Positions 4,933-35,769 of a stretch of DNA of 37,048 nt are shown here, piece by piece; position 1 is the first letter of the stretch; the number at the start of each line of letters is the position of its first letter. The DNA lies in the NCBI GenBank assembly GCA_030638785.1, contig DAOWDY010000212.1, positions 1 to 37,048 on the forward strand. Direction: 5' to 3'. The notes beneath the pieces were generated by a model. It did no database searches, was not told the origin of the DNA, and saw only the letters and a list, made by a program, of their open reading frames with translations. Origin of the DNA: Candidatus Thorarchaeota archaeon. GTDB taxonomy: Archaea > Asgardarchaeota > Thorarchaeia > Thorarchaeales > Thorarchaeaceae. A program made the translations under genes and the position numbers.

Positions 4933-5384
4933 ATCTGTTTCATGAAACAGGGAGCATCTGGGCAGAGAGTCGTAAACTCAATACTCTGTAGAAGATCTTC
5001 AGGGACTCTTTCTCGAGGTATCAGACTAAAGCCCCGCCTTTTGAAAAACTCTTCAGCGGTGTCGGTAAGCAGGTAGAGAGTTTCAATACCCTTTCTCTTT
5101 GCACTACCTGTGGCTAAATCAACAAGACGAGATCCTAACCCTTTCTTCTGCATATCTGGATGAACTGCAAGTGATCGAAGAAGCGCGGAACTTCTATAGA
5201 CTTCTAACCCAACGCAACCAATGATGATCTCTGGACCTGAAACAACCTCCTGACTCTTGACCACGATGAAGTTGTCCACATGGGGTTCAATACCCTCGGA
5301 AGGTAGATTGGTTTCCTGCAAAAGAACACGAATCGCAGGTAAGTCATCCTCACGTGCTTGGTTAACAAGTAAATCCTCAATCAT
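4929..5384 (-). CDS. GNAT-family N-acetyltransferase (ArsN2/ArgA-like small type)
   Basis: 151 aa with acetyl-CoA motif LRSLAVHPDMQKKGLGSRLV and C-terminal FFKRRGF. Its 3' end overlaps the LRR gene stop by 4 nt (convergent). Confidence 0.8.
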   Translation of the reverse strand: MIEDLLVNQAREDDLPAIRVLLQETNLPSEGIEPHVDNFIVVKSQEVVSGPEIIIGCVGLEVYRSSALLRSLAVHPDMQKKGLGSRLVDLATGSAKRKGIETLYLLTDTAEEFFKRRGFSLIPRERVPEDLLQSIEFTTLCPDAPCFMKQI

Positions 5385-5573
5385 TCACTCAACCTCTTTC
5401 CCAAATTAATAACTTCGTACCTCAAAAAGCCTCGCACTCCCATCCCCTAAGAGAGTCCACTTTGTAAACCACTCGTTTTCGGTTCGAATTATTATGAAAA
5501 TCCAATATGGAAGTATCGTGGTATACAGACATCCGGAAACGGATTCAGAAAGTGCTATTTCGTAGCTCTTTGC

Positions 5574-5590
5574 TTAACACGTGTTTATAC
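5574..5590 (+). promoter_or_regulatory. Conserved TATA-like box (copy 1)
   Basis: TTAACACGTGTTTATAC. The same block occurs at 6294-6310, and a related CTAACGCGATTCTATATTC at 25501-25519, each upstream of a paralogous small ORF. Confidence 0.35.
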
Positions 5591-5737
5591 CATAGTGTTC
5601 TATAGTATTTCTATCTCCTGTATTAGCAATATCTTGAGAATCGACTCTCATTGAGAGATTCCATGATCGTAACCTCCTAGATTCTTGGTCTAGGAGTTTA
5701 TGCGTGATTAGGAGACTAACCAAAAAGTGGTGATTTG

Positions 5738-6001
5738 ATGAGAAAGATGAAAACCCGTGTTCTTGCAATGAGTATTGGTCTATGTTTCACTCTATCTCTT
5801 CTCTCAGTGGGAGCATTTTACTTGGCAGCTTCCAGTGGTTTTACTGGATTTAGCCTTGAAAACACTTTCACAGTGAGCAGTGATGTACCTCCGGAAGATG
5901 TTCCACCTATTGACGAACAGGTGAAACCGGAACCTGTGAAAAACGGAACAGGCGTATATGTTATGCCTAATAAAACACATTGCTCATATTCTTTGGATTG
6001 A
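5738..6001 (+). CDS. Small membrane-anchored acidic/proline-rich protein (paralog P1)
   Basis: 87 aa: MRKMKTRVLAMSIGLCFTLSLLSVGAFYL then ...SSDVPPEDVPPIDEQVKPEP. GGTGAT Shine-Dalgarno 4 nt before the ATG. The N-terminal ~28 aa are conserved in P2 and P3. Confidence 0.6.
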   Translation: MRKMKTRVLAMSIGLCFTLSLLSVGAFYLAASSGFTGFSLENTFTVSSDVPPEDVPPIDEQVKPEPVKNGTGVYVMPNKTHCSYSLD

Positions 6002-6040
6002 TTGTGATCTTTCACCGGTCATATTCAATTCACTCCTAAG

Positions 6041-6120
6041 CTTGACGTTGCTCTATCGTATTCTCACTATCTTCGACCGGGGTTCTCTGATTATATCGAC
6101 AGCCCATGAGTAACGTCAAG
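6041..6120 (+). promoter_or_regulatory. Long-range hairpin downstream of P1
   Basis: CTTGACGTT (6041-6049) and AACGTCAAG (6112-6120) are exact reverse complements. The position matches the hairpins after P2 and P3. Confidence 0.35.
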
Positions 6121-6293
6121 TATCCCGGAATCATCTGCAAAGAGAAGATATTCCATTCGTTGGTTCACTGAATAGATTGGTTTCTCTGGTGACAGTTTTT
6201 TGGTACTAATTTGAAAACACTCCATTTTGGAAGCATGATGGTATACAGATTACCAGAAAATAGCATCAAACTTGCAAATCCGAAACCTCTCAT

Positions 6294-6310
6294 TTAACGC
6301 GTGTTTATAC
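6294..6310 (+). promoter_or_regulatory. Conserved TATA-like box (copy 2)
   Basis: TTAACGCGTGTTTATAC, 720 nt downstream of copy 1. Confidence 0.35.
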
Positions 6311-6457
6311 TAAAGTAATACGATAGTATTACCTGTCTCCTATTAGCGGTTTCATGAGGATTGGCTCTCAAAGGTTGATCCTAATGTCATCGCCTCCTGG
6401 ACCCCCGTTCTTGGAGTCAATGCGTGATTGGGAGATCATCCAACTGGACGTGATTTA

Positions 6458-6685
6458 ATGAGAGAGAGGAAAACTCGTATACTCGCAGTGAGTATCAGTC
6501 TTTGCTTCGTTCTAGCCCTTGTTTCTGTTGGAGCTCTCTACATGGTTGGCTTCGCTGCAAGTAGTGAAGTACCTCCAGAGGATATCAGTCCTCCTGAGGA
6601 ACCAGTAGAGTATTTTGAGGACATCATTCCTGATGACTTCATTCTAGAAATATGGGATGGATATCGTACTGATGCTCCACATTGA
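6458..6685 (+). CDS. Small membrane-anchored acidic/proline-rich protein (paralog P2)
   Basis: 75 aa: MRERKTRILAVSISLCFVLALVSVGALYM then ...SSEVPPEDISPPEEPVEYFEDIIPDDF. The ATG is preceded by GTGATTTA, as in P1. Confidence 0.6.
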   Translation: MRERKTRILAVSISLCFVLALVSVGALYMVGFAASSEVPPEDISPPEEPVEYFEDIIPDDFILEIWDGYRTDAPH

Positions 6686-6710
6686 TAGTGACTCTTCACC
6701 GGTCACACCC

Positions 6711-6793
6711 GCCTAGCATCGATCCCCTGTGTACCCCCTGGTCCAAGACCATCGGTCTGGGACTACCTCCACAGCCCTGGAGAGATGCTAGGC
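6711..6793 (+). promoter_or_regulatory. GC-rich hairpin between P2 and the tandem-Lrp gene (terminator/attenuator candidate)
   Basis: GCCTAGCATC (6711-6720) and GATGCTAGGC (6784-6793) are exact reverse complements. There is an inner hairpin AGACC-ATC-GGTCT (6747-6759). The segment looks GC-rich relative to its surroundings. Confidence 0.4.
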
Positions 6794-6837
6794 ACCAACC
6801 TCTCACCCATTGAACCACGATTCATCAATTAGGTGCA

Positions 6838-7821
6838 ATGGAAATGGACCAAATAGACAAGAACATAATTGGGCATCTTCTTGCCTGTTCAAGAAAATCA
6901 TTCAGAAGCATAGCAGACAATTTGGGTGTTTCATGCCCAACAGTCAAAAAACGAGTAGAACGTCTTCGTCAGTTTGGAGTTATTCAACGGTTCTCAGTCG
7001 AGATGTCACATGAAACATTTGGAACTAAATGGGTTGCTGCCAAAATCCAGACCAATGGTAGAGAAGATAAGAGTGTGCTACTGAATCAATTTGATGAAAA
7101 CGAGTGCATCCGTGAAGTCCTCTCATTTGGGAATGGAGGATACTTGCTTTTTGCTGAGGTGACACCCAATGAGAAATCCAGTTGCAGAGATTATCTCGAT
7201 TCACTTGAAGGTATGGAGTCTACAGAAGTTTCTTACATCAAGCAAATCCCGAGTAACACAGTAGGTGGTCAATGTAAATACACTACAAAAGGAGGCAAGG
7301 TAGAAATCTCTTCAGATCATCTCAAGCTTCTATGGCACCTCGTGAAGAACTCCAGGCTCCCAGCCAATCATCTTTCTCGTCTGACTGGATATTCCATCAA
7401 CGATGTACGAAGGGTTCTCAAACAAATTCTTGAACATCCAGGAATTCATTTCACAGTTCAGCTCAATCTTGCATCATGCGGAGAACTAAACTTTATCCTT
7501 ATGTTTGATCATGATGGAACAGACACACCAGAAAACATCGCCGATCAATTAAGTAGTAAGCATCCACAAGAGCATTGGTTCTCTATGAAAGCTCTTGAAA
7601 AGGACTCCATGATGACCTATATGACTGCAAATAATCTTGGAAAGGTTGAGGAGATTATTGAGCATTCACGAGCGATTCCGACGACTTCAAAAGTTGATGC
7701 AAAGATTATCTATAGCGTTCTGAAATCCGAACCCAGAAGCGAGAAATTCATCAGAGATTATGCACTAGACCACGTTGAAGGGATTTCCAAAGAACCAAGG
7801 AAACGTTACTCAGGTTTCTAA
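6838..7821 (+). CDS. Tandem-Lrp/AsnC-like protein (two HTH + RAM-like modules), paralog A
   Basis: Module 1: DKNIIGHLLACSRKSFRSIADNLGVSCPTVKKRVERLRQFGVIQRFSVE. Module 2: LKLLWHLVKNSRLPANHLSRLTGYSINDVRRVLKQILE. AGGTG Shine-Dalgarno at 6831-6835. The start is ATG 6838 or 6844 (MDQIDK, matching the paralogs). Confidence 0.8.
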   Translation: MEMDQIDKNIIGHLLACSRKSFRSIADNLGVSCPTVKKRVERLRQFGVIQRFSVEMSHETFGTKWVAAKIQTNGREDKSVLLNQFDENECIREVLSFGNGGYLLFAEVTPNEKSSCRDYLDSLEGMESTEVSYIKQIPSNTVGGQCKYTTKGGKVEISSDHLKLLWHLVKNSRLPANHLSRLTGYSINDVRRVLKQILEHPGIHFTVQLNLASCGELNFILMFDHDGTDTPENIADQLSSKHPQEHWFSMKALEKDSMMTYMTANNLGKVEEIIEHSRAIPTTSKVDAKIIYSVLKSEPRSEKFIRDYALDHVEGISKEPRKRYSGF

Positions 7822-22959: not shown

Positions 22960-23751
22960 ATGTCGTTCTTGAAAAACAAGATTGCGATGGGAGCGATCCT
23001 TGTGGCGCTTATTGGTGTTGGTTCTTTGGGGGTCCTCTTAGCCCTGAATACACCTGTTGAAGATAATTCAATTAGAATTACATTGCTGGATAATGCAGGT
23101 GTAATGATTGAAGCTGAAGGGTTGCGCATCTATATTGATCCGTACAACCTTCCGGACAATCAGACAGATTTACCAGCTGATGCAATTCTGGTTACTCATC
23201 CTCACGGTGACCACTATCACTTCGGTGCGATAGAAAAGATCGCTACAGATGATACGATTTTCATATTCCCAGAGAATATGTCAACTGAAATCGACCGTCA
23301 TGATGGAGTAGGTGTAAATCCAGGTGACACTGTGGAGATCGGAAGCATCACAGTCACAGCATTTTGGATGTATACATTCCCGCCTGAAGGTACCGACTTC
23401 GAAGCAACACATCCGGTTGAAGCAAATTGGACGAGCTATATCCTTGACATAAATGGATTCAGAATCTTCCATGCAGGAGACTCGAAGTGTATTGACGAGT
23501 ACGAACAGCTGAGTGGTACCATAGATATTGCATTTCTCCCTCTTGGTCCAGGTTGTCAGACCATGTGCGATACCGAGGTTGTTGACGCCCTTGAGATGAT
23601 TGAACCTGAAATATTCATTCCAATACATTACGGGGAGGGAGCGGAAGACAGTTTTGAATCAGTCTATGGTGGACAAGTTGAGAACATGGGAATCGAACTC
23701 ATGATTCTTGCTTACTGGGAATCCACTATCTTTGAATCGGAAACAGTATAG
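22960..23751 (+). CDS. MBL-fold metallo-hydrolase with N-terminal signal anchor
   Basis: ILVTHPHGDHYH (HxHxDH), FHAGDS, PIHYG. The N-terminus is KNKIAMGAILVALIGVGSLGVLLAL. Confidence 0.85.
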   Translation: MSFLKNKIAMGAILVALIGVGSLGVLLALNTPVEDNSIRITLLDNAGVMIEAEGLRIYIDPYNLPDNQTDLPADAILVTHPHGDHYHFGAIEKIATDDTIFIFPENMSTEIDRHDGVGVNPGDTVEIGSITVTAFWMYTFPPEGTDFEATHPVEANWTSYILDINGFRIFHAGDSKCIDEYEQLSGTIDIAFLPLGPGCQTMCDTEVVDALEMIEPEIFIPIHYGEGAEDSFESVYGGQVENMGIELMILAYWESTIFESETV

Positions 23752-23816: not shown

Positions 23817-24194
23817 CTATCTAGTCTTCTCCTCAAATGCCTCGAAAGCAAGCCTCTTGGCTTTCTCTTTCATTTCGGCGATATTTCGGCCAATCTCCCT
23901 CACATCTTCATACATATCCATCTGAGCGGAGATGCCCCTCTCAACATAAGCAGAAACAGCAGCAGATCGACTCTTGAACACCTCAAGTTCAACGAGAGCG
24001 TCAAGAATCTCGACAATAGATGAACTCAAGCGAGTCATCACATGGACTTCTCTTTTCTTTAATTCAAACTCCTCGGAATAGAGTTCCCCGAGGATGCGTT
24101 CTTTGAGGGTGACTTGCCCAGTACCACCCTTTGGTTTTGGTTTCTTATCAGACACGGTACGTTCCCCACAGTCTTGTGTGTTACATGAATACAT
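23817..24194 (-). CDS. Ribbon-helix-helix (CopG/Arc/MetJ-like) DNA-binding protein
   Basis: HVMTRLSSSIVEILDALVELEVFKSRSAAVSAYVERGI fits the strand-helix-helix pattern (..SRS..). Flanked by a basic N-terminal tail and a helical C-terminus. ATG at 24194 (TTG at 24200 also in frame). Confidence 0.5.
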   Translation of the reverse strand: MYSCNTQDCGERTVSDKKPKPKGGTGQVTLKERILGELYSEEFELKKREVHVMTRLSSSIVEILDALVELEVFKSRSAAVSAYVERGISAQMDMYEDVREIGRNIAEMKEKAKRLAFEAFEEKTR

Positions 24195-24314
24195 TATCAA
24201 TGACCTATTTATATATTTTGTATTGGTATAATATTAAACAATATATATATAAGGTGTCAGAGGTAATACTATTACTAGTAAGGGTTCCAGTTTGGAATCT
24301 AAGAGGGATATAAA

Positions 24315-25274
24315 ATGGATGAACTCGATAAGACCCTTCTTCTGAAGCTCCTCAGGAATTGCAGAGCCTCCTACAGGCAACTTGCAAGAGAACTAGGAGT
24401 TAGCTGTCCGACCATAAAGAGACGGGTAGATCACTTGGTTGAGGCAGGAGTCATCGAAGCCTTTATTGTGGACATCTCGCAAGAGACTTTGGGGGTTAGC
24501 TGGGCTTATGCTGAGATCACATCTGATCTATCAGAGGACAGAGCTCGTCTGATTCAGGAGATCTCAAGCAATAGTTCAACCAACGAGACCTTCGCAGTAG
24601 GCTCCAAGAGTTACATCTCATTTGCTGAAGTTTCCCCGGGTGGTGTCTATGAGTATGGAAAGTACCTGAGAGGTCTGACTGGTGTAAGTCAAGTAGACCT
24701 CGTTCAAGCACGACAAATACCAACCCAAATGCTGTCTAATCAATGCAAATACTCTACTCGAGGAAAGAAGGTTGAGTTCAGCACTCAACAGAAGACAATT
24801 CTACGTCATCTTATGGATGATGCACGTATCTCAATCCTTAATCTCTCAGCCAGGACAGGATTCAAACCAAAGCGTATCAGAAGACTCCTCAGGGAACTAG
24901 AAGCAAGTGAAGGTGTTCATTTCACTATTCGATTCAATCCATCTGTTGAGTCTTCTATAAGCTTCATTCTCAAGATTGGGTTCGATGAGACCCAGATCAC
25001 TCCAGGCGAGATAGCCACCTGGCTTGAGAACGAATTCCCCCAAGAATACTGGATGTCATTCCTGCTTCTCAATGGGCCTGTGATGATCAACTACATGACA
25101 AGCGACAATCTTCCAAAGATCGAGGTGCTCCTCAGGAAAATGTTGGAGATTCCTTTCATTCGAGATGTTGAAACCATCTTGATCTATCACATACAGAAGC
25201 CTGCATCAAACGGCTCTGATTTAACAGAAGAAGCTGCGGCTGCTTCCGCAGCTGCGGTACCTGTTACTGCATAG
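24315..25274 (+). CDS. Tandem-Lrp/AsnC-like protein, paralog D
   Basis: MDELDKTLLLKLLRNCRASYRQLARELGVSCPTIKRRVDHLVEAGVIEAF plus a second HTH KTILRHLMDDARISILNLSARTGFKPKRIRRLLRELE. GAGGGA Shine-Dalgarno 8 nt upstream. Ala-rich C-terminal tail. Confidence 0.8.
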   Translation: MDELDKTLLLKLLRNCRASYRQLARELGVSCPTIKRRVDHLVEAGVIEAFIVDISQETLGVSWAYAEITSDLSEDRARLIQEISSNSSTNETFAVGSKSYISFAEVSPGGVYEYGKYLRGLTGVSQVDLVQARQIPTQMLSNQCKYSTRGKKVEFSTQQKTILRHLMDDARISILNLSARTGFKPKRIRRLLRELEASEGVHFTIRFNPSVESSISFILKIGFDETQITPGEIATWLENEFPQEYWMSFLLLNGPVMINYMTSDNLPKIEVLLRKMLEIPFIRDVETILIYHIQKPASNGSDLTEEAAAASAAAVPVTA

Positions 25275-25500
25275 CAGAACTTGTCATATCTACTGTTTGT
25301 TGCTACACTTCGTGGATCTTTTATTGTAATATTGTGAGGTGTGACTTTTTGTGATTTCTCTGATTTTTCATGTAATGCCACTGACCAAAGTGGAAATAGC
25401 CAAGTATGTACTTTCACCCCAAATTGTCCGTTTTGTAAAGCTGCCGCGTTACACTTCCGCCCAAGGACCATTCACTTTCTCCTGTATGGAAGGGAGCTTC

Positions 25501-25519
25501 CTAACGCGATTCTATATTC
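25501..25519 (+). promoter_or_regulatory. Conserved TATA-like box (copy 3), abutted by the palindrome GGAAG-GGAG-CTTCC
   Basis: CTAACGCGATTCTATATTC resembles the boxes at 5574 and 6294. The palindrome spans 25488-25501. Confidence 0.35.
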
Positions 25520-25583
25520 ATTCTGTACATGATATTAACTAAGCCATCCTTGAGGTAAACTCGGGGTGGGATGTGGTGAAAAT

Positions 25584-25841
25584 ATGAATAAGAGAAAGAC
25601 TCGGATGATTGCAGGAAGCCTTGCCTTCTGCTTCGTTGTTTGTGCCCTTTCGGTGGGTATCCTGGCCTTCATGGCTCATGGTGCAACACCCAGTGTCTAT
25701 GCAGATCCTGATGTCAATGATTATCGAATCAACGAACCACAGGTTCATGCAGACCCCGATGCCCTCGATTACAAGACAAACACTCCAGCAGTATGGGCTG
25801 ATCCTGGTGCATTAGCTTTCAGGCTAATAACCACGGATTAA
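25584..25841 (+). CDS. Small membrane-anchored acidic protein (paralog P3) with an internal 16-aa tandem repeat
   Basis: 85 aa: MNKRKTRMIAGSLAFCFVVCALSVGILAF, then ADPDVNDYRINEPQVH / ADPDALDYKTNTPAVW / ADPGALAF.... GGTGA Shine-Dalgarno 5 nt upstream. Confidence 0.6.
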   Translation: MNKRKTRMIAGSLAFCFVVCALSVGILAFMAHGATPSVYADPDVNDYRINEPQVHADPDALDYKTNTPAVWADPGALAFRLITTD

Positions 25842-25860
25842 ATGCGTCAGAATCTATTAG

Positions 25861-25897
25861 CCTAGCGTCATGGTTTCCGTGGCGCTAGGTCCTTTTT
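25861..25897 (+). terminator. Hairpin plus T-tract downstream of P3
   Basis: CCTAGCG (25861-25867) and CGCTAGG (25883-25889), followed by TCCTTTTT. Confidence 0.5.
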
Positions 25898-25934: not shown

Positions 25935-26927
25935 ATGGATTGGTTGGATAAAAAGATCGTAACACGACTGCTCGGGAATTGTCGAGAGTCCTATAGAAGC
26001 ATTGCAAGAGAATTTGATGTAACCTGCCCCACAATCAAGAAGAGAGTAGATCGACTTCGTCAGTGGGGTGTGATTCAGCGATTCTCTGCAGAACTGTCAC
26101 AAGAGGCTCTTGGTGTCGACTGGGTCTTGGCTGATCTCCGTACAAGTACGAACAATGGCAGAGCGAAAATCCTTCAGCAATTTGCTGACAATGAGTGTGT
26201 TGGAGAAGTGTTCATGCTTGGAGGAGGACGTTACTATGTCTTTGCAGAGGTGTGCCCCAGTGAGCGAAAGGAACTCCTATCCTGCATCCGTCAGCTTGAT
26301 GATGTAAAATCAGTTGACATTTCAGATATCATGCCGATCCGTAATGGTGTTATAAATGGCGATTGCCGATTTACCACTCGAGGCAGCAATATCAAGCTTA
26401 CCAAGAACCAGACGACGATACTCAGGTTCCTCACCTCAAATGCTCGAATGCCTGTGAATCAGATCTCTGAATTGACTGGTTTCAGTGCAAAATTCATTCG
26501 TCGTGTGATTCGAGACTTCATCGAGTGCGACGCAGTGAACCTGACTCTGCGTTTGAACCTACCCTCATCAGGGAGAATCAACTTCATCCTTAAGTACCGT
26601 CTAAACGAAGAAACCACTGGTCCTGTGGATGCTACTGAGTTGATAACAGATATCTATCCTGAAGAACACTGGTTTACGTTCTTTGACCCTGATGCAGAAG
26701 ACATGCTCCATTACATGACTGCGAAGAGCATTACAGATGTTGAACACATCTTCCAGGAAATCAATCAGCTTCCCTACTCGGAGGGTGTGGAGGCTAACAT
26801 AATCTACAGTACAATGAAGTCAGAGGGTAGGACTAGATCGTTCCTTCAAGACATCTCAAAAAAAGTGAACTCGGAATCAAAGGGGCTTCCCCTAGTGATG
26901 GATAATCGAGTTTCAGTGTCATATTGA
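25935..26927 (+). CDS. Tandem-Lrp/AsnC-like protein, paralog E
   Basis: MDWLDKKIVTRLLGNCRESYRSIAREFDVTCPTIKKRVDRLRQWGVIQRF plus a second HTH TTILRFLTSNARMPVNQISELTGFSAKFIRRVIRDFIE. GTGGTG Shine-Dalgarno. Closest to paralog A. Confidence 0.8.
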   Translation: MDWLDKKIVTRLLGNCRESYRSIAREFDVTCPTIKKRVDRLRQWGVIQRFSAELSQEALGVDWVLADLRTSTNNGRAKILQQFADNECVGEVFMLGGGRYYVFAEVCPSERKELLSCIRQLDDVKSVDISDIMPIRNGVINGDCRFTTRGSNIKLTKNQTTILRFLTSNARMPVNQISELTGFSAKFIRRVIRDFIECDAVNLTLRLNLPSSGRINFILKYRLNEETTGPVDATELITDIYPEEHWFTFFDPDAEDMLHYMTAKSITDVEHIFQEINQLPYSEGVEANIIYSTMKSEGRTRSFLQDISKKVNSESKGLPLVMDNRVSVSY

Positions 26928-27053: not shown

Positions 27054-30000
27054 ATGAATCTACGAAAATCAGTATCATCGAAATCAGTTCTGAAAATGGT
27101 TGCTCTGTTTGTTACAGTGATATTATTCACGCAATCGGTCGCAATAATTGAGGGTGTGATTTCACCTTCAAACAGCGAATCAAGAGAAGAAGTCAGAAGA
27201 CCAACAACAAAGTACGAATCTTCTTTTGATGTCACACCCGTACCAGTAGCTGAAAGTCCAGATTGGATTTCATTCGATGATAATAGTACGGACCCTGGAA
27301 CACCAGCAGAGGCACATGTGACTCTTACCGATACCTTGGGATTAAGAGTTGTCGCCGATTTCTATGGATTTTGGGATAGGAATATCACTCTGAATAATGA
27401 AACATTCTTGTACGATCGACCAGAAATTCCTGGTGCAAGTTATATGACAATATCTGGCAAACCGGAGTTACCTAGATTTACACAGATAGTAGAAGTTCCA
27501 CATGATGTCTGGATAACAGTTGACGTACTGCAGAATACATCCGCTCTGATTTCAAATTTTAATATTACTCCAGCTCAACCCCCTTCTATAGCAATTTGGA
27601 ATCCTGGTATAGACATGAATTTTACTGATGTAGTTGATGAGATAGGGAATGACAGTGCCTTTTACCCAGACTACGCAGTGACTCTTGAAGGTTGGAATGC
27701 GACAGAACCTCAAGTAATGAGAGGCAGAAGACTCCTCTTGGTCAGTTTCTATCCGTTTCAATACAATCCCTTTAACAATACTCTAAAGGTACACTCACGC
27801 ATTGAAGTAGACATTAATTACAGTTTTCCTGCACAAATAGAAGCTGCAAATTCTTCATTGCACTCACTAGAATTTGAAAAAATCTTTATTAATAAGTTAT
27901 TGAACCCTAAAACCTGGGAGCCCCAATCGTATGCAGAATGTGGACCACCAACTCCCTTCGTAACTGCAGAGGATGTATATCCTTCATTTCCTGAATCAGG
28001 AGCAGAATATCTAATTATCGTCGAAGATGCTTTCAAACCTGCTGCTGACAGACTAGCTGAATGGAAGACACGGAAAGGAGTTCCTGCAGCAGTTTTCACA
28101 ACAACAGAAGCTCGTGCTTATGCTAGTGATTATTCTAGGTTTGATACAATTGAAGGTTTCATTTCAACTATATATAAAAAATGGGCGAAGGTGCCAGAAT
28201 ATATACTCCTATTCGGAGATTCAGAACATATTCCAGCAATCTATGAAACGAAACATCCTGATGGGTTCTTTAACGTCAAAGGTAAAAAGTATTCAGCTGA
28301 TGATAGGGAGGTAGCCACAGATCTTCATTACTTTACAATGGAAGGGAGAAAAGATCTTTTTCCTGATTTCTTCTATAGTCGTATTTCTGTCAACACACTC
28401 GAAGAGGCAGACAACGTTGTAAACAAAATTCTGGAATATGAGAAATTTCCTCCTGAAAACCAGAATGATGATTTCTTCAATGACATCCTCGCAACCTCAT
28501 TCTTTGAAGATGGTGAAGAACCCTATGCCTATGAAGATAGGGGTTCAGGTTTTTTGACTTACATTGACGAAATTAGAGAATATCTAGACAGCGTGACAAA
28601 CTACCAACTCCATCTGAACTACACTACCAACTCCCCTGTGGCAGATGATCCTCAAGTTATTTTGAAAGGCATTCATGGCAATGTTATTCCATATAATCTT
28701 GAAGATTACCCTAATTTCAAATGGATGCAATGGGACGATCTAGATGGTGCATTATCAAATATAACTGCAAACATTGATGAAGGTAGATTCTTTGTCATCA
28801 GCTTCGATCATGGTTCTTCAGAAAATATGTATCGAATGGATTTAGGACGTTTTGAATCATTTGATGGATGGGCTGTTCCGCGGTTCAATACGACGTCTGT
28901 TGAACTGTTGCAAAATGATAAACTCTTTCCATTTGTGTTTAGTGCAGCATGTAATGTAGGATGGTTTGATGGAGAAACAGACCAAGATAATGCTAGACGT
29001 CAGGATTCCGTGTACACAAACAACAATGAATCTCTCTCAGAGATACTCTTAAGGAAATCCGATGGTGGTGCAATCGCTACTATTGGTGCAACAAGGCTTA
29101 GTTATAATCTATTGTCATTCTATTTACTGGAGGGTATAATCCAATCATTTTGGCCCAGCTCCCTTGAACCAAATAATCAACCATTATATGAATTTGGGGC
29201 AGCGCTTCAACAAGGAAGATTACATTTACTCACACGAAGAGAGAATGATGCCATTCGACAGGTATCCTTAGAGATGTATCATTTGTTTGGTGATCCTGAA
29301 ACTTCTCTTTGGACTGATGTGCCAGCGGAATTCTCAGTTCATTTTCCTGCAACAATTGGAAGAACGAGTGCTCAAAGTTTTGGTTTTACAGTACGCGATG
29401 GAGAAAATCTAGTTCCTAATGCTAGAGTATGCATACAGCAAGGCACACAAATTTACAAGGTTCAGTATACAAATGAAAAGGGAGAAATCTATTTTGACAT
29501 TCCGGACATTTCCATTGGACCAATGAACGTCACAATTACTAAACATAACTTTAGGCCTAACATATCAATTGTTCTCGTTGATAATAGCGCTCCCTTTGAA
29601 GCGGGGCAAAATCAAGGATTCGATTTAAGTGAGGTTGCCGCAGGACCAGATCCATATATCTACAGCCAGTGGGATCCTCTTACATGGCATCTTGGTGGAC
29701 AGATAAAAACCTACGACAATCCTTGCATAGAAATTTACAGCATTACAACAGATACACAGACCACATCCATTACCACAACAACAGCTGTAAATTCCTACAA
29801 TTTGCACGAAGGTCAAGATTATCTAATTAGAGTAAAGATATTGAATGGTGGAACAATGAATGCAGTAAACATAGCAGTCAACCTAAGCTATGCATACTTT
29901 GGAGCAGGTCAATCTTGGACTGAGATAGATACCAAACTCATAAACGTGACTCAGTCTGGTGACCCATTAATTCCATCTACTCATGGACAGACGTATGTAG

Positions 30001-30524
30001 AATTTCAATGGATTTCAACTATTGAGGGAACGGCATGTTTTCGGGTGGGTATTGATCTAGATTCCGACATCAACTTTGCGAATAATTATGGACAAGAGAG
30101 TGCATATCAAAACAAATCAAGTTCTCTATCGACCGTAGGTTTCCTTATGGGAAATCCAACTCAATACGTGAGATATCCATTTATTGAACTTCGACAAGCT
30201 TGTCGAGCTGTTCCTATTATGAGTGCATCAGTAGTAGGATATTATTCCCGAGTTCTTACCACTGAAGAGTTCGACCCACTAGGTTTTCTTGGTGACTTTA
30301 CAGATATAGTAGATATTAATGAGTCGCGAATATTCATTGTTGAAGTGTTTTACAATGGAGAGCTTGTTGGCGGATTTGAGATAAACGCTACAAGAATCGA
30401 GGAACCTGTTGAACCAACCTCAAATGGTGGGCTCACACCAGAACAAATCCTTTTAATTATCGCAGGAGCTGCAGGAGCTGTGATTGTGATCGTCATAGTG
30501 ATAATTAAATATAAAAAGAAATAG
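27054..30524 (+). CDS. Peptidase C25 (gingipain-like, clan CD) surface protein with signal peptide, C-terminal beta-rich domains and TM anchor
   Basis: FVISFDHGSSENMY (His, codon 28809-28811) and FPFVFSAACNVGWFDG (Cys, codon 28950-28952), then GGAIATIGATR and HLFGDPETSLWT, all parallel to gingipain motifs (GHGSE / VACVNGDF / FGDPSL). N-terminus MNLRKSVSSKSVLKMVALFVTVILF; C-terminal helix ILLIIAGAAGAVIVIVIVII plus KYKKK. Many N-x-S/T sequons. The ORF is open from 26928, and ATG 27054 was chosen for its signal-peptide-like N-terminus. Confidence 0.85.
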   Translation: MNLRKSVSSKSVLKMVALFVTVILFTQSVAIIEGVISPSNSESREEVRRPTTKYESSFDVTPVPVAESPDWISFDDNSTDPGTPAEAHVTLTDTLGLRVVADFYGFWDRNITLNNETFLYDRPEIPGASYMTISGKPELPRFTQIVEVPHDVWITVDVLQNTSALISNFNITPAQPPSIAIWNPGIDMNFTDVVDEIGNDSAFYPDYAVTLEGWNATEPQVMRGRRLLLVSFYPFQYNPFNNTLKVHSRIEVDINYSFPAQIEAANSSLHSLEFEKIFINKLLNPKTWEPQSYAECGPPTPFVTAEDVYPSFPESGAEYLIIVEDAFKPAADRLAEWKTRKGVPAAVFTTTEARAYASDYSRFDTIEGFISTIYKKWAKVPEYILLFGDSEHIPAIYETKHPDGFFNVKGKKYSADDREVATDLHYFTMEGRKDLFPDFFYSRISVNTLEEADNVVNKILEYEKFPPENQNDDFFNDILATSFFEDGEEPYAYEDRGSGFLTYIDEIREYLDSVTNYQLHLNYTTNSPVADDPQVILKGIHGNVIPYNLEDYPNFKWMQWDDLDGALSNITANIDEGRFFVISFDHGSSENMYRMDLGRFESFDGWAVPRFNTTSVELLQNDKLFPFVFSAACNVGWFDGETDQDNARRQDSVYTNNNESLSEILLRKSDGGAIATIGATRLSYNLLSFYLLEGIIQSFWPSSLEPNNQPLYEFGAALQQGRLHLLTRRENDAIRQVSLEMYHLFGDPETSLWTDVPAEFSVHFPATIGRTSAQSFGFTVRDGENLVPNARVCIQQGTQIYKVQYTNEKGEIYFDIPDISIGPMNVTITKHNFRPNISIVLVDNSAPFEAGQNQGFDLSEVAAGPDPYIYSQWDPLTWHLGGQIKTYDNPCIEIYSITTDTQTTSITTTTAVNSYNLHEGQDYLIRVKILNGGTMNAVNIAVNLSYAYFGAGQSWTEIDTKLINVTQSGDPLIPSTHGQTYVEFQWISTIEGTACFRVGIDLDSDINFANNYGQESAYQNKSSSLSTVGFLMGNPTQYVRYPFIELRQACRAVPIMSASVVGYYSRVLTTEEFDPLGFLGDFTDIVDINESRIFIVEVFYNGELVGGFEINATRIEEPVEPTSNGGLTPEQILLIIAGAAGAVIVIVIVIIKYKKK

Positions 30525-31084: not shown

Positions 31085-32575
31085 CTACTGACTCTTTAGA
31101 ATCGCATCAAGAGTTGAATCTAGGAATGGAAGATTGAATTCTCGAGAGAGCGTTCTAATCGCATCTACGGAAGCTCGTAAGGAGTCATCATCATTTATTG
31201 CAAGCGCCATTCTAGCCCTAAGAATGTGAGAAAGACCAAGAATTCCCGGAAGATCATCCGATTTTGCTCTTTCCTCAAGAAGTGTCAACCAAGGTAGTGA
31301 ACCATCACTAGTTACCGTATCTGCCTTTCGACAAGCCTGAAATACATCAATTCGTGCTAGATAATACAGAAATATCAAAGCGTTTTCTATTGCAGATTTA
31401 CCCTCATATAAATCCAAAGCATTTCTGATGTTACTTGTTGCTGAATCAAGATTCCCTTCATCCAAATCTATGACACCCGTGACAAAATACAACCAAGCTA
31501 AGAGAACTTCCAATCCAGATTTCATAACATCTTCATGAATGGTGTCAATCAAAACACGGGCTTCGGTCTTTCGCCCTAAAAGGATAAGAGACCATGCTTG
31601 ATTTAATATCGCGCGTGGATATTGAGAGGGATTACTATCAAAATCTACCTCAGCATATCTTGCCCACTCTAATCCAGCATTGGGATCTCCAATCGCAATG
31701 TATACTGTAGACAACAAGATTGCCTGCGAACTTCTTGGAAGATCCATAGATTCACGAATCCTAATCGATTCTAAGGTTCGTTTAATAGCTTGATCATATT
31801 CACCTCTGGTTGCGTAAAGTCTTGCAAGATAGAGCAATGTTGATGCAATTCCTGCTTTATTCCCTAAGGAGTTCATGACTTCATACGCTCTTAGAAGTGA
31901 ATCTCTTGCCTCTATTATGCTTGAGCTTCGTAGGTAGTCTGATTTTATTCTTAAGTGCCATGCTAATCTGACTAGGTCATCATGATTCTCAGCACTCCTT
32001 ATTGCTTGATTCGTAGATCGGATTTTTACTTCCAAGTCACCATCTCTAGCAGCTCTCTCTCGATAACAATCGAACAAAATGTTCTCGAAAAACTCGAATT
32101 CGGAAGAGCTTTGAATCAACTCCTCTAACTTCTCAAGATTATTTGTATCATAGAGAGTCTTTGGATATTGGAGTAAGTCAGCCTCGAATTTGAGGAACCG
32201 CATCTCGATAGCCAGCCAATCAGGAGGATCTGTCGCAAGAACTTGATTTGCAGATTCGTGTACTTTCTCTAAATCTTCAAGATTCCCTTGATGGACACTA
32301 GCATAGAACAGATTGGGACGAAGAATTGGGAGTTTCCCATACTTTTTCCCAATGGCTTCAATACTTTCCATATCCAATAGAAGGGCAGAGTGATGGATTG
32401 CAAAATAGATTGCTAAATCTGGAACTTCTTCATCTAGTACTTGATTATTCAAACGTATGACAAAATCCTGATAATTCTCAGCTTCATCCATAATCGACTG
32501 CATGATGTCACGTGATTCGTCATCCAAGAAGGGGAAGTACATAGTAATAGTCCCAATTGAATCCAGCAAGTCCAA
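31085..32575 (-). CDS. TPR-like alpha-solenoid protein, tandem paralog T1
   Basis: 496 aa, all-helical. TPR-like units (e.g. LLYLARLYATRGEYDQAIKRTLESIRI, WARYAEVDF...) and a conserved N-terminal module GTITMYFPFLD...IYFAIHHS...ILRPNLFYASVHQG shared with T2. Non-ATG start (TTG 32575, or TTG 32569). Confidence 0.75.
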   Translation of the reverse strand: MDLLDSIGTITMYFPFLDDESRDIMQSIMDEAENYQDFVIRLNNQVLDEEVPDLAIYFAIHHSALLLDMESIEAIGKKYGKLPILRPNLFYASVHQGNLEDLEKVHESANQVLATDPPDWLAIEMRFLKFEADLLQYPKTLYDTNNLEKLEELIQSSSEFEFFENILFDCYRERAARDGDLEVKIRSTNQAIRSAENHDDLVRLAWHLRIKSDYLRSSSIIEARDSLLRAYEVMNSLGNKAGIASTLLYLARLYATRGEYDQAIKRTLESIRIRESMDLPRSSQAILLSTVYIAIGDPNAGLEWARYAEVDFDSNPSQYPRAILNQAWSLILLGRKTEARVLIDTIHEDVMKSGLEVLLAWLYFVTGVIDLDEGNLDSATSNIRNALDLYEGKSAIENALIFLYYLARIDVFQACRKADTVTSDGSLPWLTLLEERAKSDDLPGILGLSHILRARMALAINDDDSLRASVDAIRTLSREFNLPFLDSTLDAILKSQ

Positions 32576-32641
32576 CCTCCCAAATGATATCTACAACATT
32601 ATCTTTCAGGAGTATTGAATGATGAGTCTTTCGTTATGCTT

Positions 32642-34132
32642 TCATGGCAATTCTAGGAACAACTTCAATTCGTTTCTAAGATATGCCATACTCGGATCCT
32701 TTCCAATCTCTCGAATCTTGTAAACTAATTCTTCTAGCTCCGTTTCATCATTTCGTGCAAGAGCGACCTTTGCCTTCATTAGTAGAACCATAGCTGAGAT
32801 TCCGGGCAGACTATCCTTGACTGCCTTATCCTCAAGAAATTGAAGCCACGGGTTCTCGAATCCGTTTAAGACCTCTCCTGAAGATGAAACCAATACTGCT
32901 ACATCAAGTTGAGCCAGGTGTTGCAAGAAAATGAGATGATTATCAAGCGTACCTTTCCTTTCGTAAATCTCGAGTGCTTCTTCCAAGCTTTTTGACGCCG
33001 ATTCAGTATCTCCCTGAACTAACTCATAGACTCCTGTTACAAAAGATAACCATGCAAGAAGTATCTCAACCCCAGACTTTAGAATAAGTTCTCGTGTGGA
33101 GTCAATAAGGTCAAGGGCTTCATCATACCTCTTCAGGAGAATCAACGACCAGGCTCTGTTTAATTGACCTCGCGGTTTTACCGTCGGAGAAGCGTGTGCT
33201 TCAGCTTCAGCAAGTCTTGCCCATTCTATAGCTGTTTCTGGTTCTGATATCGCGTTGTAGTAAGTCGAGAGCACAATGGCGTATACGGCTGTCGATAAAT
33301 CCAAAGATTGTCTGATTCTAATGACTTCCAAGATGCGTTCGATTGCAAGATTATATTCACCACGTACAGCATCAATCCGAGCAAGGTAGAACAAGATTGA
33401 CGCCATCCCTGCCTTATTCCCTATATCTTTCATGATGCGATATGCCTTCATTAGAGAATTTCTAGCCTCAACCAAGTCAGTAGTCTGTAAGTAGTCAAAT
33501 AGGAATCTCAAATGATATGCTAACCTTACGATGTCGTCACACTTTTGTGCGCTCTCAATCGCAAGTGTGATGCATCGAAGTGCCTCTTCAGTATCACCAT
33601 CTCTTGATGCTTTTTCCCTCATACAATCATATAGAATGTTCTCAAAGAATTCGTATTCAGGAGAGCTCTGAATTAATCCCTCCAATACATCCAGATTGGC
33701 TGTGTTGTAGAGCGTCTTTGGGTATTGAAGCAAATCTATTTCAAATTTCAGGAATCTCATCTCGATCTCGAGCCAGGTGGGAGGATTAGCAGCGAGCACA
33801 GCATCCACTGATTCATGAACTTTAGAAACATCATCAAGTTTACCTTGGTGTACGCTGGCATAGAAGAGATTAGGACGAAGTATTGGCATCTTACCATATT
33901 TCTTCCCGATGGCTTCGATGTTGTCCATATCAAGTAGTAAACCTGAATGGTGGATTGCGAAGTAAATCACTAAGTCAGGAACATCTTCAGTAATTACTCT
34001 CTCCTTCAAACGCATAACGAAGTCGTAATAATTTGCAGCATCATCCATTATGGTTTGCATGATTCTCCTTGATTCTTCATCCAAGAAAGGAAAGTACATT
34101 GTGATTGTACCAATTGGTTCCACTATGTTCAA
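32642..34132 (-). CDS. TPR-like alpha-solenoid protein, tandem paralog T2
   Basis: 496 aa, collinear with T1 along its full length. The start is TTG 34132 or GTG 34123, 4 nt after the T3 stop, with AGAGG Shine-Dalgarno. Confidence 0.75.
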   Translation of the reverse strand: MNIVEPIGTITMYFPFLDEESRRIMQTIMDDAANYYDFVMRLKERVITEDVPDLVIYFAIHHSGLLLDMDNIEAIGKKYGKMPILRPNLFYASVHQGKLDDVSKVHESVDAVLAANPPTWLEIEMRFLKFEIDLLQYPKTLYNTANLDVLEGLIQSSPEYEFFENILYDCMREKASRDGDTEEALRCITLAIESAQKCDDIVRLAYHLRFLFDYLQTTDLVEARNSLMKAYRIMKDIGNKAGMASILFYLARIDAVRGEYNLAIERILEVIRIRQSLDLSTAVYAIVLSTYYNAISEPETAIEWARLAEAEAHASPTVKPRGQLNRAWSLILLKRYDEALDLIDSTRELILKSGVEILLAWLSFVTGVYELVQGDTESASKSLEEALEIYERKGTLDNHLIFLQHLAQLDVAVLVSSSGEVLNGFENPWLQFLEDKAVKDSLPGISAMVLLMKAKVALARNDETELEELVYKIREIGKDPSMAYLRNELKLFLELP

Positions 34133-34136
34133 CCTC

Positions 34137-35624: not shown

Positions 35625-35769
35625 AAAATCTAGCCCCCACTCGGTGACGCGACCAGCATATCTCACATCAAATGTAGATGAGTCTTTCGACAAATCAAGT
35701 TAACCAAGCCTTTTTCTTCAAGTTGCTTTTGTATGACATTAGAATATCGTGAAATAGAGAGAATCAACT

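Follow-up and report, generated by a model that had tools for sequence, protein, structure and literature searches.

Small proteins with a predicted membrane helix linked to dedicated tandem-Lrp regulators in Thorarchaeota

The small-protein family and evidence for coding

Three paralogous genes for small proteins, P1 (5738-6001), P2 (6458-6685) and P3 (25584-25841), all on the plus strand, were identified in a 37,048-nt stretch of DNA from a Candidatus Thorarchaeota archaeon (GCA_030638785.1, contig DAOWDY010000212.1; hereinafter referred to as the window). Gene order and phylogeny showed that the family to which they belong is linked 1:1 to tandem-Lrp genes and has diversified together with them. 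The proteins comprise 75-100 residues, with a conserved membrane helix and a disordered acidic tail according to structure prediction, and two tail types were distinguished, type A (P1 and P2) and type B (P3). Sixteen proteins of the family were found among 5.8 billion clusters, the named ones from Thorarchaeota only, and the family is confined to a few genera of these uncultured Asgard archaea. Type B is present in at least three genera; type A is restricted to close kin of the window. Relatives occur in JGI samples 3300041086, 3300041085 and 3300035158 and in run SRR2657594. No relative was detected in Pfam, NCBIfam or a PDB sequence profile search, and no paper on the family was found in the open literature. 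The family is undescribed so far, which bears out the first-pass annotation, whose author knew of no described archaeal family of this kind.

An N-terminal motif common to P1, P2 and P3 had also been claimed, and this was confirmed: the first 32 residues align without gaps, and a profile built from them retrieved P1-P3 with E values of 1.6e-20 to 7e-20 from the 30,916 six-frame ORFs of the genome, the next match having an E value of 0.018. In 86 genomes of the taxonomic family, the same profile returned true members only (E 1e-13 to 1e-18), with noise from E 0.0046 upward. The likeness is therefore far beyond chance, and a generic signal peptide of the lineage was rejected as its explanation. 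Since homologues were found with the motif, the family does not fall for want of relatives, an outcome that had been named in advance as one that would count against it. Regular-expression and profile scans of all six-frame ORFs revealed no copies beyond P1-P3 in their own genome, which is 61% complete. The start of a larger secreted protein of another genus (L044) resembles the small-protein N-terminus.

P1, P2 and P3 are genuine protein-coding genes under purifying selection. Their ATG start codons (5738, 6458 and 25584) are each preceded, 5-8 nt upstream, by GGTGA or CGTGA, which is kept in all relatives. Selection was assessed by uncorrected pN/pS with bootstrap, because NG86 dS reached saturation in many comparisons between species. 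The ratio was 0.28-0.51, every bootstrap interval excluding 1 (7/7 pairs): 0.51 for P1 and its L015a orthologue (CI 0.34-0.75), 0.48 for P2 and L015b (CI 0.31-0.72), and 0.28-0.34 for P3 and three relatives. Between P1 and P2, for which a dN/dS near 1 had been put forward as a reason to abandon the proposal, dN/dS was 0.16 (NG86) and pN/pS 0.33 (CI 0.21-0.50). The tail alone was also below 1 in the seven tested pairs, with intervals excluding 1 (upper bound 0.96, for the P1/L015a tail). The membrane helix was the best-conserved part, at 0.08-0.14 in close type-B pairs.

The 5' leaders and downstream hairpins are strongly conserved, in places beyond the coding tails, as would be expected if the ORFs were not translated and the conserved entity were a non-coding RNA or a set of regulatory DNA elements preceding the Lrp genes. 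This is scarcely credible, however, given that the frame is open in every relative with the synonymous excess described above, and that the ATG and its spacing from GGTGA are conserved. Moreover, protein-level motifs are kept across genera even though synonymous sites are saturated there (pS 0.81; NG86 dS not computable), and no Rfam match was found in the region 5300-6900.

Cassette organization and linkage to tandem-Lrp genes

As read from the aligned loci, the cassette consists, in order, of its own predicted promoter, a structured 5' leader, a Shine-Dalgarno sequence, the small gene, a hairpin, which in type B is followed by a T-run, and a dedicated tandem-Lrp gene; all features described below lie on the plus strand. 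At the type-A locus, the P1 promoter and 5' leader (5501-5737) contain TCCAATATGGAAG...GTATACA (5501-5539) and the TATA-like element TTAACACGTGTTTATAC (5574-5590), followed by a leader of ~125 nt with a CCTCCTAG/CTAGGAG hairpin in the consensus fold and GGTGA before the ATG. These blocks are conserved in 6/6 type-A genes on four contigs, and the promoter/leader motifs occur in this genome at the three small genes only. P1 encodes 87 aa, beginning with MRKMKTR and continuing through the helix to ...VPPEDVPPIDEQ and a variable end, and has orthologues on L015 and L017. A short hairpin, GTGATCtttcaccGGTCA, is predicted directly after it (6003-6021) and belongs to a direct repeat, D2, with a copy after P2.

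P1 and P2 lie in the two copies of a 720-bp tandem duplication. The P2 promoter and 5' leader (6221-6457) represent its second copy, and the direct repeats D1 and D3 of the P1 upstream region lie 720 bp from their P2 copies. P2 encodes 75 aa with the tail VPPEDISPPEEPVEYFED... and the end GYR|TDAPH, and has orthologues on L015b and L018. Two hairpins, with a fold conserved on L015b, are predicted between P2 and the Lrp gene (6687-6793), namely GTGACtcttcaccGGTCAC and a long stem, GCCTAGCATCGATCC...GGAGAGATGCTAGGC; an inverted repeat, I1, is located at 6711-6725/6779-6793. The outer stem resembles the GCCTAGCG stem located 3' of type-B genes. The cognate tandem-Lrp gene of the type-A small genes (6838-7821; 327 aa; HTH_AsnC-type E 7.8e-13) comes after P2. 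The earlier statement that both peptide loci lie upstream of a tandem-Lrp gene thus holds directly for P2 and P3, but P1 is separated from the Lrp gene by P2.

At the type-B locus, the upstream neighbour is another tandem-Lrp gene (24315-25274; 319 aa), which has no small gene of its own; Lrp genes of this type precede the type-B cassette in most contexts, not in G005. The P3 promoter and leader (25432-25583) contain TTTGTAAAG...TTACA, TGGAAGggagCTTCCTAACGCG, a TATA-like CTATAT and GGTGA, together with a leader hairpin, CCATCC...GGGTGG, predicted from hairpin pair counts. Blocks of this region are shared by 10 type-B genes of three genera and recur on three more contigs. P3 (85 aa, with three tail repeats) is followed by a predicted terminator-like hairpin of 14 pairs and CCTTTTT (25860-25897), a GC-rich equivalent of which was present 3' of every type-B gene examined; a hairpin with a T-run in this position may fit a short, abundant transcript. 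Next come the cognate tandem-Lrp gene of P3 (25935-26927; 330 aa), modelled with two HTH+RAM units (AlphaFold pLDDT 87), and a gene for a Peptidase_C25 (gingipain-like) surface protease (27054-30524; Pfam E 1.2e-52).

A tandem-Lrp gene was located directly downstream on the same strand in 14/14 type-B genes with readable flanks. When the search was performed from the Lrp side, all four new Lrps of the linked clade (4/4) were immediately preceded by a small gene of the family that shares the promoter, leader and hairpin motifs. The anticipated conservation of linkage, whose absence would have counted against the proposal, was therefore observed, and in the latter four cases it was predictive. 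Among the five tandem-Lrp genes of the window, only two (6838-7821 and 25935-26927) are preceded by a small gene. In the Lrp tree, the Lrps with an upstream small gene formed one clade (100/100), in which the A-linked subclade (99/94, containing 6838-7821) and the B-linked subclade (98/95, containing 25935-26927) were sisters; an upstream small gene was found at none of the 29 other tandem Lrps in the tree (0/29). The sister relationship of the two subclades indicates that the whole cassette was duplicated. Further, a survey of the taxonomic family detected the small gene and the linked Lrp in the same 7 of 86 genomes and gave no match to either in two genomes of the same genus (92-93% complete); the cassette was tandemly duplicated in one MAG.

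The linked regulator contains an AsnC-type HTH plus RAM twice, according to Pfam HTH_AsnC-type matches, the AlphaFold model and Foldseek. Its residues 2-128 matched PH0061 and AsnC in a PDB sequence search, and its single units resemble PH0061, ST1022 and AsnC (22-24% identity). The best PDB folds were the fused tandem NirDL and single Lrp/AsnC regulators, the whole chain superposing on NirDL, of the NirDL/AhbAB fold, with a TM of about 0.6. It differs from siroheme decarboxylase, however, in sharing only 10% identity with NirDL and in matching the AhbB model at E 1e-3, compared with 1e-18 and 1e-13 for the LysM and AsnC models. These sequence comparisons place the regulator with the DNA-binding Lrps rather than with siroheme decarboxylase.

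Tails and the N-terminal helix

The tails had been described as variable, which proved to be half true. Type-A tails contain VPPEDxxPP, and P1 and P2 share VPPED[VI]xPP with their relatives; this conserved motif adjoins the membrane, and the C-terminus varies, as at the end of P1. Type-B tails carry three repeats of [Y/F/H][R/K][I/T][N/D]xP. In P3, these are three 16-residue repeats (..DYRINEPQ, ..DYKTNTPA and ..AFRLITTD at the end), which are conserved across genera, although the spacing of the repeats in type B ranges from 16 to 21 residues. In 9/16 type-B tails, each repeat has one basic residue, for a total of exactly three. An aromatic or His residue followed by Arg/Lys and then exactly 5 residues to the C-terminus ([YFHW][RK] plus 5) was found in 13/16 type-B and 3/6 type-A proteins, compared with a background of 1.3% of the ORF ends of the genome. 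The C-terminal residues are conserved (..TPW, ..TPY, ..SPF, ..TTD). A motif search detected no tail motifs elsewhere in the proteome, outside the small-protein family.

Gingipain-like C25 proteases cut after Arg/Lys, and an extracellular protein, such as the C25 protease or a PDZ-type reader of C-termini, may use the displayed tail as a substrate, decoy or docking ligand, with Lrp co-regulating this surface module. The single Arg/Lys in each repeat, the conserved C-terminal residues and a C25 gene adjoining the cassette in four cases (the window, L014, G020 and L085) are in line with this explanation. Nevertheless, we consider it unlikely, as no C25 match was found in the cassette-carrying G005 (95% complete), G001 and G093, the C25 gene is convergent in G020, and the type-A loci had no protease neighbour in the contexts read. 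The C25 protease was accordingly rejected as an obligate partner; its gene is an optional neighbour outside the cassette core.

The first-pass annotation had also likened the layout to that of RiPP-like precursors; on such a reading, the N-terminal part would be a leader for modifying enzymes and the tail would contain a variable core. The N-terminal part is indeed conserved while the C-terminal part diverges, and four Cys residues occur in the tails of two type-A relatives, but these residues were lost in the P2 of the window, and the putative leader is a predicted transmembrane helix, unlike RiPP leaders. Maturase genes, whether YcaO, radical-SAM, lanthipeptide or other, were conserved near neither locus in any context; the neighbours in the contexts read were GNAT, LRR, Lrp, MBL-fold, TPR and C25 genes. 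Gene context thus largely refutes this proposal, which appears very improbable.

The gap-free N-terminal 32 residues consist of M, 6 mostly basic residues and ~24 uncharged hydrophobic residues, among which are A10, S/G12, C16, C/S20, S23 and G25. The N-terminal end has ~4-5 basic residues, and the net charge of the tail is -3 to -17. The uncharged stretch (~24-30 residues) was modelled by AlphaFold within one helix, residues 3-33 (31 residues, pLDDT 73-85), followed by a disordered tail (pLDDT <50). Along this helix, S/G12, C16, C/S20 (S in type A) and S23 form a small-xxx-small stripe. A cleaved Sec signal peptide would have an n-h-c layout with a hydrophobic core of roughly 7-15 residues and small residues at -3 and -1. 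The n-region here is basic, and S23-V-G25 may act as a -3/-1 site in genus g1, but this position reads L/I-T-S in g15 and g7, and no signal-peptidase site was conserved across genera in the alignment.

Two other export classes were rejected. A prepilin peptidase site (class III signal) was absent, the sequence K-T-R-[M/V/I]-[I/L]-A having no G/A after the basic residue; without a [K/R]-[G/A] site, and with a disordered tail rather than a pilin beta domain, the proteins did not correspond to archaeal type IV pilin-like proteins. No lipobox, which would read [LVI][ASTVI][GAS]C where the hydrophobic core ends, was found either: the residues before C16 are G-L, S-L or A-F and those before C20 are V-V, position -1 never being G/A/S.

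Given the length of the predicted helix, its conserved small-residue face and the lack of a conserved signal-peptidase site, the supposed leader would be no less suited to permanent anchoring than to cleavage, and the conserved stripe suggests a durable contact between helices rather than a segment to be discarded. The layout of a secreted pro-peptide, as claimed earlier, was accordingly retained in part: the disordered tail, the one basic residue per repeat and the aromatic-Arg/Lys 5 residues from the C-terminus agree with it, whereas the leader fits an anchor at least as well.

A possible, if doubtful, explanation is that the proteins are resident single-pass membrane proteins, the helix face mediating self-association or contact with a larger membrane protein such as a transporter, sensor or protease, and the short tail motifs being exposed, while the adjacent tandem-Lrp merely switches expression and no peptide signal exists. 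Small single-pass modulators such as MgrB, SafA and AcrZ act as resident membrane proteins. Besides the conservation of the helix and its stripe at positions 12, 16, 20 and 23, an uninterrupted 31-residue helix is longer than the usual signal-peptide core, the signal-peptidase site is not shared across genera, and the N-terminal profile is family-specific and not that of a generic export signal. This explanation, however, does not account for the strict 1:1 travel and duplication with one Lrp clade, nor for the fixed aromatic-Arg/Lys-plus-5 end, which is kept across genera despite the drift in repeat spacing, and no conserved membrane-partner gene was found nearby. MgrB, SafA, AcrZ and MgtS resemble the family in having <100 aa, a single conserved helix and a dedicated regulator, but their genes are not paired 1:1 with that of a transcription factor of their own, and the proteins carry no repeated tail motifs and show no sequence similarity to the family. 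ECF sigma/anti-sigma pairs likewise comprise genes of a transcription factor and a single-pass membrane protein that are inherited and duplicated together. They differ in gene order and regulator family, and an anti-sigma needs a cytoplasmic binding domain of ~80 residues, compared with 7 predicted cytoplasmic residues here.

Candidate peptide signalling

We tentatively favour a reading in which the small protein serves as a membrane-anchored pre-peptide that is released to signal to the cognate Lrp, which would control the cassette promoter. The basic N-terminal end of the small protein would remain in the cytoplasm and a single helix would span the membrane, with the disordered acidic tail displayed outside the cell. 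The tail would be cut after the conserved aromatic-Arg/Lys sites to release short peptides, including the C-terminal pentapeptide (LITTD in P3, TDAPH in P2). These peptides may be taken up and sensed directly by the cognate tandem-Lrp in the cytoplasm, or may signal to it indirectly, and the Lrp would then act on the cassette promoter. Export, cleavage, sensing and autoregulation are steps that we infer, and this signal reading is held with modest confidence, a resident membrane protein being nearly as likely. More specifically, and with distinctly less assurance, Thorarchaeota may use pentapeptide-sized signals (e.g., LITTD, IDTPW and TDAPH) that are sensed by a covalently doubled cognate Lrp with feedback on the cassette, the putative system diversifying via cassette duplication (type A versus type B, and tandem copies in one MAG).

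Matches to Opp/Dpp-type peptide-binding proteins numbered 10-34 per genome in 5/5 cassette genomes searched. Peptide uptake is therefore possible, but such importers, being numerous in all five genomes, are uninformative as discriminating evidence. No constant protease or importer neighbour was found across the contexts read. Several observations weigh against a peptide signal: the conserved helix with its small-residue stripe hints at lasting contact, no cross-genus alignment conserves a signal-peptidase site, and in type A the conserved motif is the one adjoining the membrane, while the C-terminus varies. In addition, the sensing role known for Lrp/AsnC regulators concerns amino acids and other small metabolites, and the known ligands of their RAM domains are such small molecules rather than peptides. 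PDB matches of the linked Lrp included complexes with L-Ile, Gln and Leu. We know of no Lrp that pairs with an exported peptide.

To our knowledge, gene-encoded peptide-based cell-cell signalling has not been demonstrated in Archaea, and no such archaeal system was found in the open literature. The coupled, co-duplicating peptide/double-Lrp pair in Asgard archaea thus provides a concrete, testable candidate circuit; if the signal reading is true, it would represent peptide communication in Archaea with an Lrp receptor in place of a TPR receptor. If the protein stays in the membrane, it would still count among the earliest examples in Asgard archaea of a lineage-specific small membrane protein whose regulator is defined. 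The family is moreover an example of a whole regulatory cassette (promoter, leader, ORF, hairpin and regulator) duplicating and swapping only its exposed tail.

Among known repeat precursors, yeast alpha-factor, processed by Kex2, and fungal/plant repeat pro-peptides likewise have short units behind one N-terminal export segment and a basic residue at a fixed place. Here, however, a single Arg/Lys follows an aromatic residue instead of a dibasic site, and there are only 3 non-identical units. No evolutionary relationship exists between these precursors and the family, for which we know of no Kex2-type enzyme.

A parallel in layout is offered by the RRNPP systems of Bacillota and their phages (Rap-Phr, PlcR-PapR, NprR-NprX and AimR-AimP). 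There, the gene of the cytoplasmic regulator has as its neighbour a small gene (about 40-100 aa) whose product starts with a hydrophobic export segment, and such cassettes are duplicated and diversify as units. The mature RRNPP signal is a short C-terminal peptide, released by proteolysis and re-imported by Opp; in the present family, a candidate mature peptide of 5-6 residues would likewise lie at the extreme C-terminus, after a putative cleavage site. A small pro-peptide-like gene adjoined the regulator in all 14 type-B contexts and in all four found from the Lrp side. The differences are that the host is an archaeon, the small gene is upstream of the regulator with its own predicted promoter and terminator, the N-terminal segment is a long conserved helix and not a typical cleaved signal peptide, and each precursor carries three motif copies. 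Further, the regulator is a tandem Lrp/AsnC protein with HTH_AsnC plus RAM twice, in which no TPR-type peptide-binding domain was found. Nearby genes for TPR proteins of ~490 aa, which had no PDB sequence relative, were rejected as RRNPP-like receptors; their family occurred in 54/86 genomes, with up to 14 matches per genome, unrelated to the presence of the cassette.

Small genes and tail types

The window encodes members of an undescribed, Thorarchaeota-restricted small-protein family, in which a helix predicted to lie N-in/C-out is followed by a disordered, motif-bearing tail, and which is inherited and duplicated together with its own tandem-Lrp gene as a cassette; we consider this description solid. 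Three such genes were identified on the forward strand, in a Thorarchaeota MAG of 2.36 Mb (277 contigs, 61% complete): P1 (5738-6001, ATG at 5738, 87 aa), P2 (6458-6685, ATG at 6458, 75 aa), and P3 (25584-25841, ATG at 25584, 85 aa). Their common N-terminus, proposed in the first-pass annotation, was borne out: residues 1-32 aligned without gaps, and a 32-residue profile run against the genome's 30,916 ORFs recovered P1, P2, and P3 at E about 1e-20 and the next match at 0.018, so that the likeness is real and beyond chance. GGTGA or CGTGA was located 5-8 nt upstream of each ATG, an arrangement kept in every relative.

Uncorrected pN/pS (codon bootstrap) was 0.28-0.51 in seven paralogue/orthologue pairs, with every 95% interval excluding 1, and remained below 1 for the tails alone (0.33-0.59; widest interval up to 0.96). 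A P1/P2 dN/dS near 1 had been named as grounds for doubting the family, but the NG86 value was 0.16. Frame, ATG, and ribosome-binding site were retained across genera with saturated synonymous sites. Taken as sequence evidence, these data identify the family as protein-coding genes under purifying selection. That the loci act only as non-coding elements was ranked fifth among the readings and is hardly credible given the selection on the frame; an Rfam search returned no family match.

Searched with a profile, 1.84 billion representative proteins gave 11 matches, and word-indexed searches of 5.8 billion clusters gave 9 and later 16; all named database relatives were from Thorarchaeota. The earlier statement that no such archaeal family had been described held, as Pfam, NCBIfam, and PDB profile searches found nothing and the literature searches yielded no description of such a small-protein/tandem-Lrp system.

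P3-like (type-B) tails contained three repeats with the core [D/A/P][Y/F/H][R/K][I/T/V][N/D]x[P]. They were found by sequence search in four of the six other genomes of the window's genus, by synteny in two further genera (repeats there QVVDYRIDxP), and on additional MAG contigs. P1/P2-like (type-A) tails, limited to the window and three other contigs, carried [V/I]PPED[V/I]xPPxx[P/Q][V/I] beside the membrane, followed by a fast-changing end. The variability ascribed to the tails thus applies to the type-A end, but not to the type-B repeats or the membrane-side type-A motif, which are conserved. Judging from their sequences, types A and B are one family, and the cassette as a whole is homologous.

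Two type-A relatives (locus L015, 5001-5246; locus L018, 798-1058) possessed four tail cysteines (VECFEE.C...GC.GHRCG), all of which were lost in P2. The P1 segment SSGFTGFSLENTF recurred in the L018 protein, whose C-terminal part was P2-like, which suggests either recombination between tandem P1/P2 copies or a single-copy ancestor. In the small protein of contig G002:C195 (loci L010 and L058), repeat three was replaced by ...EIPIVIVKFPRLIP. P0008 and P0015 have this variant tail as well, so it may represent a third subtype and not a decayed sequence.

Linkage to tandem-Lrp genes

Whether homologues are always linked to tandem-Lrp genes had been posed as a check, and the linkage was found from both sides. 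A tandem-Lrp gene on the same strand lay 3' of all 14 type-B genes with readable downstream sequence, at measured gaps of roughly 50-130 nt. A reverse search with the P3-linked Lrp (25935-26927) detected new clade members; four of these (P0036, P0038, P0040, and P0041, the last repeating the G020 sequence) belonged to the P3-linked subclade, and all four were directly preceded by a family small gene whose promoter, leader, and hairpin motifs matched those of other type-B loci.

In a maximum-likelihood tree of 40 tandem Lrps, all those with an upstream small gene fell into one clade (100/100). The small gene was present in 8/8 members of the B-linked subclade (98/95), in 2/3 of the A-linked subclade (99/94), which includes one locus type without it (G004, P0047), and in 0/29 of the other Lrps. 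Across 86 genomes of the taxonomic family, the type-B gene and the P3-linked Lrp subclade occurred in the same seven genomes, and two same-genus genomes (92-93% complete) had a match to neither. One MAG harbored two cassettes in tandem.

The P3-linked Lrp is a covalent double, modelled by AlphaFold as two HTH+RAM units (pLDDT 87, pTM 0.83). Foldseek matched it to fused NirDL over its full length and to single Lrp/AsnC regulators per unit, and by sequence it grouped with DNA-binding Lrps.

Some loci departed from this layout. On G004:C98 (L062) and at L088/L089, the type-A-linked Lrp orthologue had an aminotransferase gene upstream in place of the small gene; in G004, this Lrp pair was only about 5 kb from the type-B cassette on one contig (18 kb in the window). 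The type-B cassette of G002:C195 encoded a shortened Lrp of 162 aa, its first HTH running into the second RAM-like half, and the genome search reported one TAG within the match.

Promoters, leaders, and hairpins

P1 and P2 form a 720-bp tandem duplication including about 235 nt upstream, a region conserved in 6/6 type-A genes on four contigs. Type-B promoters contained the same kind of blocks, in the order TGGAAG, TAAC[G/A][C/T]G, and a TATA-like box, the last about 80 nt upstream of the start codon. In this genome, the promoter motifs were found at the three small genes only. TGGAAG was invariant in every promoter of both types examined; in type B (window 25487-25508 and relatives) it formed a partial palindrome, TGGAAG-N4-CTTCC, abutting TAACGCG and the TATA-like box, a candidate operator of the linked Lrp.

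A leader hairpin was present in both types. Type B showed some compensatory change (3/6 pairs altered on both sides), and type A had a mostly invariant CCTCCTAG/CTAGGAGG stem with predicted pairing over GGTG of the ribosome-binding site. The type-A leader (about 125 nt; window 5613-5737 and 6333-6457; L015, L017, L018) was more conserved than the coding tail, had no Rfam match, and contained three CUCC/GGAG elements: a long-range TCTCCT...AGGAGA, the central hairpin, and the GGTG-pairing stem. This architecture resembles that of a switch, either translational or attenuator-type.

A GC-rich hairpin followed every type-B gene examined, usually with a T-run; that after P3 (25860-25890, +) comprised 14 pairs followed by CCTTTTT. 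P2-type genes had a longer downstream stem with similar outer sequence (GCCTAGC). This arrangement may point to a short small-gene transcript, made at a high level, part of which would continue into the Lrp gene.

Membrane helix, tail ending, and possible function

The N-terminal end contained about 4-5 basic residues and the tails were net acidic (-3 to -17), and an N-in/C-out orientation was therefore predicted by the positive-inside rule. AlphaFold, run with 11 sequences, predicted one helix (residues 3-33, pLDDT 73-85), with all residues beyond it disordered (pLDDT <50). The helix was the best-conserved part (pN/pS 0.08-0.14 in close type-B pairs); its lowest-entropy positions were A10, S/G12, C16, C/S20, S23, and G25, and positions 12, 16, 20, and 23 formed a small-residue stripe spanning about 80 degrees of the helical wheel. 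A generic lineage signal peptide was ruled out, as the N-terminal profile matched only family members in 86 genomes of the taxonomic family. The segment carried neither a class III (pilin) signal nor a lipobox; S-V-G25 is a possible signal-peptidase site in the window's genus, not retained in the other two genera. The segment is probably a type II signal anchor, although it may instead be cleaved off as a leader. Of the conserved leader or anchor proposed at first pass, the conserved, anchor-like helix stands, and the simple leader is weakened by the conserved helix face.

In 9/16 type-B tails, the three repeat R/K were the sole basic residues. The last aromatic-R/K pair stood exactly five residues from the C-terminus in 13/16 type-B proteins, which represent at least three genera (e.g., FR|LITTD, YR|IDTPW, WR|IITPY), although repeat spacing varied from 16 to 21 residues. 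The same ending occurred in 3/6 type-A proteins (P2, GYR|TDAPH; L015a, EHK|VDTLQ; L017, FHR|HDGGA), against a background of 1.3% of ORF ends in this genome. The layout is that of Phr and AimP, whose signals are C-terminal penta- or hexapeptides, but the ending could equally be a docking motif. A surface substrate or docking ligand was ranked third as an overall reading and appears unlikely.

Ranked first, tentatively, is an anchored pre-peptide: the tail would be cut after the aromatic-Arg/Lys sites, and the shed peptide would report to the cognate tandem Lrp. Ranked second, as a slightly weaker possibility, is a modulator that stays in the membrane and is simply under the control of the Lrp. 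Three points speak for this second reading: the helix face is strongly conserved, no protease or importer is a conserved neighbour, and the RAM domains of Lrps are known to bind small molecules. The pre-peptide is favoured by the 1:1 pairing of small gene and Lrp gene in the cassette and by the constant spacing of the C-terminal ending. A RiPP precursor, ranked fourth, is very improbable, as no RiPP-type enzyme was found nearby in any context.

The gene for a gingipain-like C25 peptidase (27054-30524) follows the Lrp gene in the window, and L014, G020, and L085 also have it close to the cassette. Searches of G005 (95% complete), G001, and G093 gave no match, which makes the peptidase optional to the cassette. 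Opp-type binding proteins (10-34 matches per genome in 5/5 cassette genomes searched) permit peptide uptake but do not support it. TPR proteins of about 490 aa were often near the cassette, but the family, found in 54/86 genomes (at most 14 matches in any one), occurred independently of it.

Three paralogous cytoplasmic TPR proteins (about 495 aa) are encoded in tandem at 31085-35693 (-). This family, expanded in Thorarchaeota and having no PDB sequence relative, was repeatedly beside tandem-Lrp genes in genera without the small gene (G064:C440, G051:C57, G071:C73). A 127-aa protein (23817-24200, -), weakly matched by the AbmR model (E 1e-4) and with an N-terminal part that on visual inspection resembles a ribbon-helix-helix, is divergent to the upstream tandem Lrp (24315-25274, +), a pair kept in most type-B neighbourhoods. 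An MBL-fold (Lactamase_B_2/3) protein (22960-23751, +), with a basic N-terminal end and hydrophobic segment (MSFLKNKIAMGAILVALIGVGSLGVLLALN...), has a small-protein-like layout, is not homologous to the small proteins, and recurs as a neighbour in the window, L014, G001, G004, and L083.
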